Below, in pieces: positions 30,001-32,000 of a stretch of 32,000 nt of DNA; positions within the stretch are counted from its first letter, which is position 1; each line of letters begins with the position of its first letter. Origin of the DNA: an archaeon (GTDB lineage: Archaea; Asgardarchaeota; Thorarchaeia; Thorarchaeales; Thorarchaeaceae); contig JAJRZD010000099.1 in assembly GCA_024275415.1 (NCBI GenBank), forward strand, positions 30,001 through 62,000, given 5' to 3'. The position numbers are program-made.

Positions 30001-32000
30001 CAAGTTGGTCGGTTCCATATTATTCCATTTAATGGAAAACATTCCCAATAACATGTGGATGTCAGTGTTGGGACCTCGTGAATCGATGGTCATCAGCGAT
30101 GTGCCATAGCTGCTCATCATCATTATGGACGTAACGTTGTTCCCAGCAGCAGTGACAAGCCCGAACGCAAGTAATGCTGAGCCCGTCCTCCTTGTCTGGA
30201 TCTCGATGGGTTCTTGTCTTCGGCTCAAGTAGTCGAATGCCGCAGGGAGGTTCAACAGTCCTGCGCCCGCGTCGTTGGCTCCATAAGCCAGTTTCGTAGC
30301 AGTTTCTCTCAGGACATTCCCAATCACGATAGGCGTCGCCCGGTCAAAGGCAGACATCAGAAGAGCAGCAGCACCGGCGACTATTGCAGCAGAAGCTGCT
30401 GTTGTGTCGGCGACCTTGTAATGCTCATCAATATTTTCACCCTTACTCCCTCCGAGCAGCCCCCCAACCCCCTCAACATCCCCGAGGTCAGTGTCACCGA
30501 ACCCGAAGCCAGCCAATCCCGCTCCAATCCGAGCACCGACTATCCCGACGCCTGGTGCCACCAAGTCAGGTTTTGTTGCTAATGCAAGGGATGGGCCTCT
30601 TCCTGAGAATGCTGGAACTTCCTGTCTGTATGTGTCATAGGCTCCTACGGTGAAACACTCAATCCCGCCTCCTGGTGACATGATAGTCAGATAGTCCGGT
30701 CCATCATCTCCAGCGGCTGCAATCACGAAGATTCCCTTTTCCACAGCAGTCGCTACTGCCTGCGCAACAGCATCGTTTGGAGCTCCGAACGTGTTGAATG
30801 GTAAAAGGATGATATCAGCGCCATTGCTTGATGCCCATTCTATGCCAGACACGATCCAGCTGCCCAAAGCCAAGATGCCACCAAAGGTCACTTTCCCTGC
30901 AAGCAGGGTGGCACCGGGTGCAATGCCGGAGTATTTTCCTTCGGATGCGTTACCGGATCCAGCGGCAATGGATGCTGCATACGTTCCAGGACCAAGGATA
31001 TCTGTTGGCAGGGCATCAATCTCCACAAAGGAAGCCGAGGCTGCGACATTCTGGAGGTCAGAGTGGTTCGAGTCAATCCCAGTATCTAACACGGCAATTA
31101 CCGCTCCGGAGCCATTATACCCTTTCTCCCAAATCTCTCTGGCTCCTACTAGATCGACGATTGAAAGATAGTCGTCCTCCGTACTGGTGCTTGTGTTCGA
31201 TGGCTTTGGCTGCTGTATCTGCATGACCTCGTTAGGCCAGATATTTGCCACCAGCTCATTTCGCGCCAACCGCAACAGGTCAGTGCCAAGTATCCTGACC
31301 CGAGCCATCTCGATGTCCTCGTATATCTCTACAACTCTGGCTACCCTCTCAGTAAAGGATAGGGCATTGCTCATCTTGAAATCTATCATGTCATCGTTAT
31401 AGCCGACTAACGCATCAATTTCCTCTTCACTTGATGTTTTGTTCAGCAGGTTTCCAGCAATCTTGCTCTCAGGTCGGACAACTGGTTTTTCTTCGACCGG
31501 GATCGGTGAGGAATAGCTCATTGAGCTTATCGTCAATATGAAAATGAGGAAGATTGTGATTACCCGAAGGATTGTGGTATTCATTTTGCCTCACCTTTGC
31601 TATTTCTCAATGATTCCTGTGATGAGTCCACGTGTAATGGCTATATAGTAATCTACAAGGTCAACTACAGCCTTTGTCTTGACGATTTTCACTGGGATTT
31701 CCTGTTCGTTCAACTCCGTGATACACTTCTCAGCAATCTCATGCAGAGGCTCTTCAGTGAAGACCTTTAGGAGTTCGCCTCTCTGCAGCACGAACAGGAC
31801 ACCAGGCACAGCCTCCAATATCTTGAGCGCACGGGGATTCACCTCCTCAAGGACAATCCCAACGGCGAACCCTCGTGAAGGCATCGACTCTTTCAGTCTG
31901 GCAGGAGACCCAAAGGCTACAAGGCTTTTTCCTCGCATGAACACGGCAACCTTGTCACAGAATTCTGCTTCTATTGGGTAATGTGTGATGACGACCATCG

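Follow-up and report, generated by a model that had tools for sequence, protein, structure and literature searches.

GIFT-domain proteins serve membrane machines as non-catalytic accessory subunits: GldG accompanies the GldA/GldF ABC-2 transporter, and OST48 is part of the oligosaccharyltransferase. Homologues of WBP1/OST48 are known from Asgard archaea, where they are restricted to Heimdallarchaeia (PMC10307638). The domain order and topology of the site-1 protease S1P (MBTPS1/SKI-1), in which a GIFT domain follows a subtilase (S8) domain, have also been described (PMC11231238). The best-studied prokaryotic pseudo-subtilases are CspC and CspA of Clostridioides difficile. In the literature searched, no paper brings together Asgard archaea and either GIFT domains or site-1 protease, or Thorarchaeota and subtilisin pseudoproteases; for the latter pair, only papers on C. 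difficile and on parasites came up.

The present analysis concerns a stretch of 32,000 nucleotides, referred to here as the window, from a member of the Thorarchaeaceae (Asgardarchaeota; Thorarchaeia; Thorarchaeales), which corresponds to positions 30,001 to 62,000 of contig JAJRZD010000099.1 in GenBank assembly GCA_024275415.1. The window encodes a membrane-anchored protein with an N-terminal S8 domain and a C-terminal GIFT domain, termed here the S8-GIFT protein, in which the catalytic machinery has been lost while the S8 fold, the propeptide and the reading frame are intact. In our opinion, this pseudoprotease is probably kept by selection as a non-cutting binding or scaffold accessory of a cell-surface machine built around an ABC-2 transporter.

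A subtilase fold without its catalytic apparatus

The preliminary description of this gene held that the catalytic Asp is retained, whereas the catalytic His is replaced by Pro, the oxyanion Asn by Asp and the nucleophile Ser by Ala. Codons checked by script at all four positions (D167, P199, D293 and A396), together with HMMER alignments, bear this out at every coordinate. The positions were fixed by gap-free alignments to the Thermococcus kodakarensis subtilisin-like protease Tk-SP (3afg, 9ues; E ~1e-40) and to subtilisin BPN'. In the alignment to Tk-SP, GPGT lies under GHGT, AAGDDGP under AAGNSGP, and DTTAAS under PGT-S-MA; it should be noted that the Tk-SP crystal construct itself has its nucleophile Ser mutated to Ala. 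Alignment with S8 members and with Asgard orthologues confirms the losses and shows that they are not confined to this copy.

The protein is nevertheless a member of the S8 superfamily, both by profile (Pfam Peptidase_S8, PF00082, residues 158–440, E 2.3e-35, 122.8 bits against a cut-off of 21.8) and by its predicted α/β subtilase fold. It does not qualify as an active S8 enzyme, the Asp-His-Ser triad of the motifs DTG, HGT and GTS being incomplete (P199, A396) and the oxyanion Asn replaced (D293). An AlphaFold2 model of residues 1–480, built from 40 orthologues (mean predicted local distance difference test score, pLDDT, 76), contains an I9-like propeptide, with strands and helices at residues 55–117, and a complete subtilase core. 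In this model the four catalytic positions occupy their canonical elements, namely the end of strand 162–168, the N-terminus of helix 200–208, the segment following strand 286–290 and the N-terminus of helix 395–412. The top Foldseek matches of the N-terminal model are pro-Tk-SP, pro-subtilisin E and subtilisins (E 5e-24). The open reading frame has no internal stops, and its integrity over 1466 codons, along with that of the signal peptide and the propeptide-like region, was also correctly described before.

Three motifs of the S8 domain are invariant across orthologues: D293–Y298, S303–G306 and F326–P331. The low-confidence segments obtained when the S8 domain is modelled alone include residues 294–305 and 327–331, which overlap these motifs in part. 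By position, the two segments correspond to loops 338–348 and 372–384 of S1P, which lie around the oxyanion residue and pack on the S1P GIFT domain (PMC11231238). Because the invariant loops are low-confidence in the isolated S8 model, an inter-domain interface in the S8-GIFT protein would fit them as well.

History and selection of the catalytic positions

A search of 5.8 billion proteins returned 319 full-length relatives with 51–68% identity, nearly all labelled Thorarchaeota. Full-length orthologues occur in more than 100 clusters, and catalytic states were counted in an alignment of the 120 clusters listed among the relatives. The oxyanion position is Asp in all 120. The catalytic Asp is kept in 116 and the catalytic His in 111, with Ser or Pro replacing the latter in eight. 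The nucleophile position carries Thr in 60 clusters, Ala in 52 and Ser in 8; across the family, A, T, S and V all occur there.

A tree was built from 54 complete genes with DNA, drawn from 75 species-level Thorarchaeota loci. Two orthologues (L052 and L053) were left out for stops or runs of N, which are most likely assembly errors (coverage of the metagenome-assembled genomes, MAGs, 2.3x and 0.5x). On this tree the nucleophile column underwent at least 12 parsimony changes, the 88th percentile among S8 columns, although it is flanked by invariant D393 and T395, and its state switches between close relatives. The His was lost independently at least twice on the tree, and the Asp at least twice overall (once on the tree, in L063, and once in cluster P0002). 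The His is absent in all seven genomes of the window's genus, with Pro in four and Ser in three; the six other genomes are only 66–70% identical to the present one.

The aligned sequences thus indicate that two changes, Asn to Asp and the abandonment of a fixed nucleophile, go back to the ancestor of the family. By the same evidence, the loss of His dates to the base of the genus, which makes His-to-Pro a recent genus trait and not a mutation private to this copy. The earlier view that three independent changes affected this copy must be revised accordingly, since two of them are ancient and family-wide and only the loss of His, at the genus level, is recent. Orthologues that keep D/H/S, combined with relaxed selection on this copy, had been named beforehand as a finding that would speak against the reading; instead, the orthologues lack the Asn everywhere and have no fixed nucleophile.

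To reach deeper relatives, a profile of the region following the S8 domain (residues 471–1366) was run against 1.84 billion representatives. Among its 199 hits, about 40 are proteins of 1300–1700 residues with an N-terminal S8 domain, and nearly all of these are degenerate: the His position holds R, S, I, E, D, T or Q, the Ser position A, G, T, S, F or R, and the Asn position mostly D. Those with named sources come from Promethearchaeota, Helarchaeota, Hodarchaeales and Lokiarchaeota. D/H/N/S with the GTSMA motif is kept in only three representatives, one of which (P0260) is from Baldrarchaeia. P0260 (L090, 10001–13774) and the likewise intact P0245 are S8-GIFT membrane proteins with a cytoplasmic zinc ribbon at the C-terminus.

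When a tree is built from the S8 domains, all degenerate proteins group in one clade, apart from those with intact D/H/N/S. Since this single clade includes degenerate relatives from several Asgard classes, the pseudoenzyme state appears to predate the split of these classes, and the clade is probably ancient and Asgard-wide. What the present copy adds is a genus-wide loss of His on top of this ancient, probably Asgard-wide pseudoenzyme state.

The ratio of nonsynonymous to synonymous substitution rates (dN/dS), computed pairwise by NG86 from unsaturated orthologue pairs, is 0.045–0.097 for the whole gene and 0.027–0.088 for the S8 domain, which has the lowest or nearly the lowest value in most pairs. 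In a pair in which both members lack the His (L023/L014), it is 0.035 in S8. The window copy and the orthologue in L015 share 80% identity in S8 compared with 71% overall (dN 0.151 vs 0.219). By parsimony, S8 changed 5.3 times per site and the other ectodomains 6.7–9.0 times; the propeptide, which is the fastest-evolving part of the protein and is joined to S8 by a disordered linker (residues 120–136), changed 14.6 times. In S8, 27% of columns are invariant. The gene is therefore under strong purifying selection, and its dead catalytic domain is the slowest-evolving part.

Two contigs (11 and 9) of MAG CAZLEV01 carry the S8-GIFT gene and its neighbours with identical DNA (L018 and L075, dN = dS = 0), which reflects either a recent duplication or redundant contigs.

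As regards the preliminary claim of a selected loss of catalysis, the selection itself is borne out by the full-length orthologues, the low dN/dS and the strongest constraint being on S8; the binding or scaffold role attached to it is a suggestion from architecture and operon context.

The C-terminal part and the transporter operon

The remainder of the ectodomain was modelled separately (residues 471–1366; mean pLDDT 68, good in most domains). Its first domain, a β supersandwich, resembles the N-domains of GH15, GH94 and GH116 enzymes in structure comparison (Z 18–21, root-mean-square deviation, rmsd, 3.0–3.6 over ~234 residues). Of the Ig-like domains that follow, the last aligns with the P-like subdomain of S1P, in a match of model residues 417–778 with chain residues 482–873 (9csd_A). 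The GIFT domain, with pLDDT of 72–89 over most of its length and 60–65 in its first 30 residues, superimposes on mouse IFT52-N (5fms_A) with Z 20.4 and an rmsd of 2.6 Å over 193 of 228 residues, as expected of a GIFT fold. By sequence, the post-S8 family profile matches IFT52 GIFT chains at E 2e-6, and many orthologues carry precomputed PF23355 and PF14258. After its first strand, the GIFT domain contains an insertion of ~70 residues (~1000–1062; 28399–28587, −) rich in Gly, Ser and Asp, which is found family-wide and is variable in sequence.

The genomic context was established from gene calls around two orthologues and by tblastn of each operon protein against the 75 Thorarchaeota loci. In every locus with enough flanking sequence (~70 genomes), the gene order is the same: ABC-2 permease, ABC ATPase, S8-GIFT protein, second ABC ATPase, surface protein and, often, a TPR protein. 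The permease typically has ~400 residues and six transmembrane (TM) helices, the first ATPase ~550 residues and the second ~320, both ATPases being of the DrrA/NodI/GldA type. The N-terminal region of the long ATPase matches the effector-binding part of Regulator_TrmB (Pfam, E 3e-10, residues 37–117) and, on this similarity, may be a cytoplasmic ligand-sensing module. The surface protein has ~2250 residues in most loci and 784 in one complete genome (L013/L040). In the window it contains 14 TSP3 repeats, and its propeller head scores above two Pfam cut-offs (BBS2_Mid, 35.8 vs 27; Beta-prop_BBS7, 28.7 vs 27); these BBSome-family scores may represent generic propeller similarity.

In the present genome the operon is split by the assembly, the window's contig (C83) stopping inside the ~550-residue ATPase. 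Its head lies at the start of contig C57 (L096, G000:C57:1-6000), which carries the N-terminal 475 residues of the ATPase (3–1427, −) and an ABC-2 permease (1438–2694, −) that is 82% identical to the permease of L015. A divergent, conserved gene of ~830 residues without a Pfam or NCBIfam hit is found next to them (2679–5183, +).

Related arrangements occur outside Thorarchaeota. In Hodarchaeales, the pseudo-form follows two ABC-2 permeases and two ATPases and precedes a β-helix protein of 1359 residues. In Baldrarchaeia, the intact form P0260 is immediately preceded by genes for an FtsX-type permease and an ABC ATPase.

The preliminary description proposed that a catalytically intact paralogue nearby might form an active/inactive pair with this protein. 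The window contains no intact S8 gene, and none belongs to the conserved operon in any of the ~70 genomes. The genome has 11 other S8 loci, on other contigs, with the Asn intact in all of them; Asp, His and Ser are intact too, judged by alignment where that was possible or by motif. Contig C116 (L095, G000:C116:48000-64632) encodes a paralogous ABC-2 permease with 43% identity to that of the operon, near an intact S8 peptidase of 666 residues and an Rce1-like CAAX protease gene (open reading frames 7633–9633, −; 9690–10571, +; 10898–12058, −). This locus is a loose parallel to the operon with an active-type protease; a GIFT domain was not detected there.

Table 1. Layout of the S8-GIFT protein and its operon in the window (positions counted from the first nucleotide of the window; residue numbers refer to the S8-GIFT protein)
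Feature	Position	Strand	Remarks
Upstream ABC ATPase, C-terminal 132 aa of ~550 aa	31600–31998	−	contig ends here
S8-GIFT pseudoprotease, whole open reading frame, 1466 aa + stop	27184–31584	−	type I membrane protein
N-terminal signal peptide or signal anchor, ~residues 1–26	31507–31584	−	hydrophobic segment 4–22; model helix 2–23
I9-like propeptide, ~residues 30–130	31195–31497	−	aligns with ProN-Tk-SP and pro-subtilisin E
Subtilase (S8) fold without catalytic apparatus, ~residues 137–470	30175–31176	−	most conserved domain
D167 (GAT), catalytic Asp kept	31084–31086	−	
P199 (CCT) at catalytic His position	30988–30990	−	
D293 (GAT) at oxyanion Asn position	30706–30708	−	within invariant motif GDDGPDY (292–298)
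A396 (GCA) at nucleophile Ser position	30397–30399	−	
β supersandwich, ~residues 471–756	29317–30174	−	like N-domains of GH15/GH94/GH116 enzymes
Ig-like β domains, ~residues 757–990	28615–29316	−	last aligns with P-like subdomain of S1P
GIFT domain, ~residues 993–1249	27838–28608	−	disordered Gly-rich insertion ~1000–1069
Membrane-proximal β sandwich, ~residues 1250–1355	27520–27837	−	with GIFT resembles lumenal OST48/WBP1
TM helix, ~residues 1366–1388	27421–27489	−	followed by basic stop-transfer
Conserved cytoplasmic tail, ~78 aa, residues 1389–1466	27187–27420	−	
Second ABC ATPase, 331 aa, DrrA/NodI/GldA type	26202–27197	−	14-nt overlap with pseudoprotease gene
Surface protein, 2250 aa	19450–26202	−	β-propeller head, TSP3-type Ca-binding repeats, TM helix, cytoplasmic tail
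TPR protein, 442 aa	18108–19436	−	at operon end in many genomes

Proposed role and relation to known systems

If the S8-GIFT protein is such an accessory, its GIFT-TM part would dock it to the membrane machine, in the manner of GldG with GldA/GldF and of OST48 in the oligosaccharyltransferase. The dead S8 domain could then act as a rigid binding module for a peptide segment of a partner or for its own uncleaved propeptide, the giant surface protein being the obvious candidate partner for the cleft. Where the oxyanion hole used to be, the invariant acidic loop GDDGPDY would probably contribute to a contact between domains, which may depend on Ca; in S1P, the equivalent loops make such a contact between S8 and GIFT. 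By hydrolysing ATP, the two cytoplasmic ATPases would provide the energy for exporting or assembling the surface components or for conformational work on them.

Several observations weigh against this proposal. The binding or scaffold role, the association with the transporter and the nature of the ligand are all suggested by architecture and operon context, and ABC genes were not found beside one Helarchaeota relative. The dS is saturated in every pair that includes the window copy, so that the dN/dS values come from other lineages. The single-protein Pfam scores for GIFT-type families are below the gathering thresholds (IFT52_GIFT, 21.8 bits vs 27.2; DUF4350, 22.7 vs 30.4; ABC_transp_aux, 19.9 vs 34.7), the assignment resting on the family profile and the model. 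About half of the Thorarchaeota orthologues keep D-H-T or D-H-S, and these relatives, as opposed to the present copy, could have weak or single-turnover activity, for example in autoprocessing of the propeptide. In a single complex prediction, the ABC-2 permease of the same genome and the part comprising GIFT, TM helix and tail scored 0.00 with a mark of 0.32, which speaks neither for nor against an association.

A less probable alternative is that the protein is a ligand-sensing receptor in the manner of CspC/CspA, its dead cleft binding a small molecule or a peptide and its TM helix and tail relaying the signal to the ATPases or to the TPR protein. Pseudo-subtilases that act as receptors do exist (PMC6636752, PMC12880746). 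The cytoplasmic tail is conserved, and the operon holds both a TPR protein and an ATPase with an N-terminus like a TrmB effector domain. Nevertheless, the protein does not specifically resemble the Csp proteins (NCBIfam CspC, 34.7 bits vs a cut-off of 675), the GIFT domain and the ABC-2 linkage point to an accessory subunit, and the notion of the dead cleft as a ligand site is a proposal by analogy.

Retention of enzymatic activity through an unconventional mechanism or alternative residues, such as a Thr or Ser nucleophile or another acidic/His set, is very unlikely. The Thr and Ser found at the nucleophile position of orthologues with Asp and His (60 and 8 of the 120 clusters, respectively) are compatible with it, as is the invariant acidic cluster of D293, D294 and D297 at the old active site. 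The present copy, however, combines an Ala nucleophile with Pro at the His position; Ala is found in 44% of orthologues, and the nucleophile column switches freely between close relatives. Moreover, the only invariant Ser, Cys or His residues in the S8 domain belong to conserved S8 framework motifs, and at the His position distant relatives have R, S, I, E, D, T or Q.

We would give equally little credence to a decoy or regulator that is paired with an active subtilase and binds substrates, inhibitors or the active enzyme itself. Candidate partners exist among the 11 intact S8 loci, including the 666-residue gene near the paralogous permease on C116, but the operon lacks such a gene throughout, and its conserved partners are ABC components and a giant surface protein. 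Finally, gene decay and sequencing error are excluded, in agreement with the preliminary description, and so is an artefact of assembly. Only the substitutions themselves could speak for any of these; the 1466-codon frame is open, full-length orthologues show the same states in independent assemblies and dN/dS is far below 1.

The accessory role thus remains the preferred explanation, and the protein is of interest for several reasons. In public records these genes carry the annotation "S8 family serine peptidase", and inferences about peptide degradation in Thorarchaeota and other Asgard archaea are inflated wherever the genes enter as proteases. A dead catalytic domain that is the best conserved part of its protein offers a clean system for learning what a non-cutting subtilase fold does. 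That the gene is so tightly coupled to those of an ABC-2 transporter and of a giant surface protein that binds Ca suggests a machine of the archaeal cell surface that has yet to be described. Moreover, the domain order recurs in site-1 protease and OST48, which provides a testable lead on the origin of two proteins of the eukaryotic secretory pathway.

Among described proteins, Tk-SP and the subtilisins are nearest to the N-terminal part by sequence and fold, the family profile matching propeptide and catalytic domain at E 1.7e-57. Unlike the S8-GIFT protein, which keeps only the Asp, Tk-SP is an active secreted protease with D/H/N/S, and it lacks the ~1000 further residues, the TM helix and the tail. 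CspC and CspA are likewise subtilase folds without a full triad that have been selected for a non-catalytic role; however, they are soluble proteins of the spore that have neither a GIFT domain nor a TM helix and are not linked to ABC genes, and with scores far below the family cut-offs (CspBA, 34.8 vs 1250, in addition to CspC) the analogy is one of kind.

OST48/WBP1 shares with the S8-GIFT protein the succession of GIFT domain, β sandwich and single TM helix, and the match to the model spans nearly the whole lumenal OST48 (Foldseek E 1e-9, Z 17.5–17.9). The rmsd of 12–13 Å indicates that the two domains would be oriented differently, and in the S8-GIFT protein the module is part of a subtilase fusion whose gene stands among those of an ABC transporter, outside any oligosaccharyltransferase context.

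S1P has the same order of signal, propeptide, S8, P-like domain, GIFT, TM helix and short tail, and the post-S8 model matches its residues 482–873 (8uw8, 9csd) with Z 17.1 over 299 residues and Foldseek E 4e-7. S1P is nonetheless an active protease (D218/H249/S414/N338 in human; PMC11231238), and the S8-GIFT protein has ~420 extra residues of supersandwich and Ig domains between the S8 and P-like domains. By sequence, the MBTPS1 Pfam family is not among the hits of this protein at E <= 0.01, and S1P does not appear among the 60 best PDB hits obtained with the S8 profile, the S8 domain being nearer to Tk-SP and the subtilisins. For the intact relative P0245, S1P ranks ~35th (E 9e-27, S8 only). 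P0245 passes PF23090 (MBTPS1_4th) with 31.2 bits against a cut-off of 27, intact Asgard relatives being at or near this threshold; of 301 Asgard genomes, 18 reach the cut-off, the present one not among them, each by a small margin and with only part of the model covered, whereas none of 14 control genomes does. Membership in the S1P family by sequence was consequently rejected, as the post-S8 profile found only IFT52 among PDB sequences at E <= 1 and PF23090 is suggestive, not specific.

It is conceivable, though on balance unlikely, that the Asgard S8-GIFT proteins (the intact Baldrarchaeia forms and the dead clade of Thor-, Loki-, Hel- and Hodarchaeales) represent the prokaryotic stock of S1P, with a GIFT/β-sandwich/TM module akin to OST48/WBP1. 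If so, the S1P-type architecture would be an unrecognised Asgard–eukaryote signature that was originally coupled to ABC transporters.

In genomic setting, the counterpart is GldG of the gliding machinery of Bacteroidota, a GIFT membrane protein that is likewise encoded with an ABC-2 permease (GldF) and an ATPase of the GldA/DrrA type. The Pfam family ABC_transp_aux scores only 19.9 bits in the S8-GIFT protein against 34.7. GldG has no subtilase domain, whereas the S8-GIFT operon encodes, besides its dead subtilase, two different ATPases and a giant surface protein.

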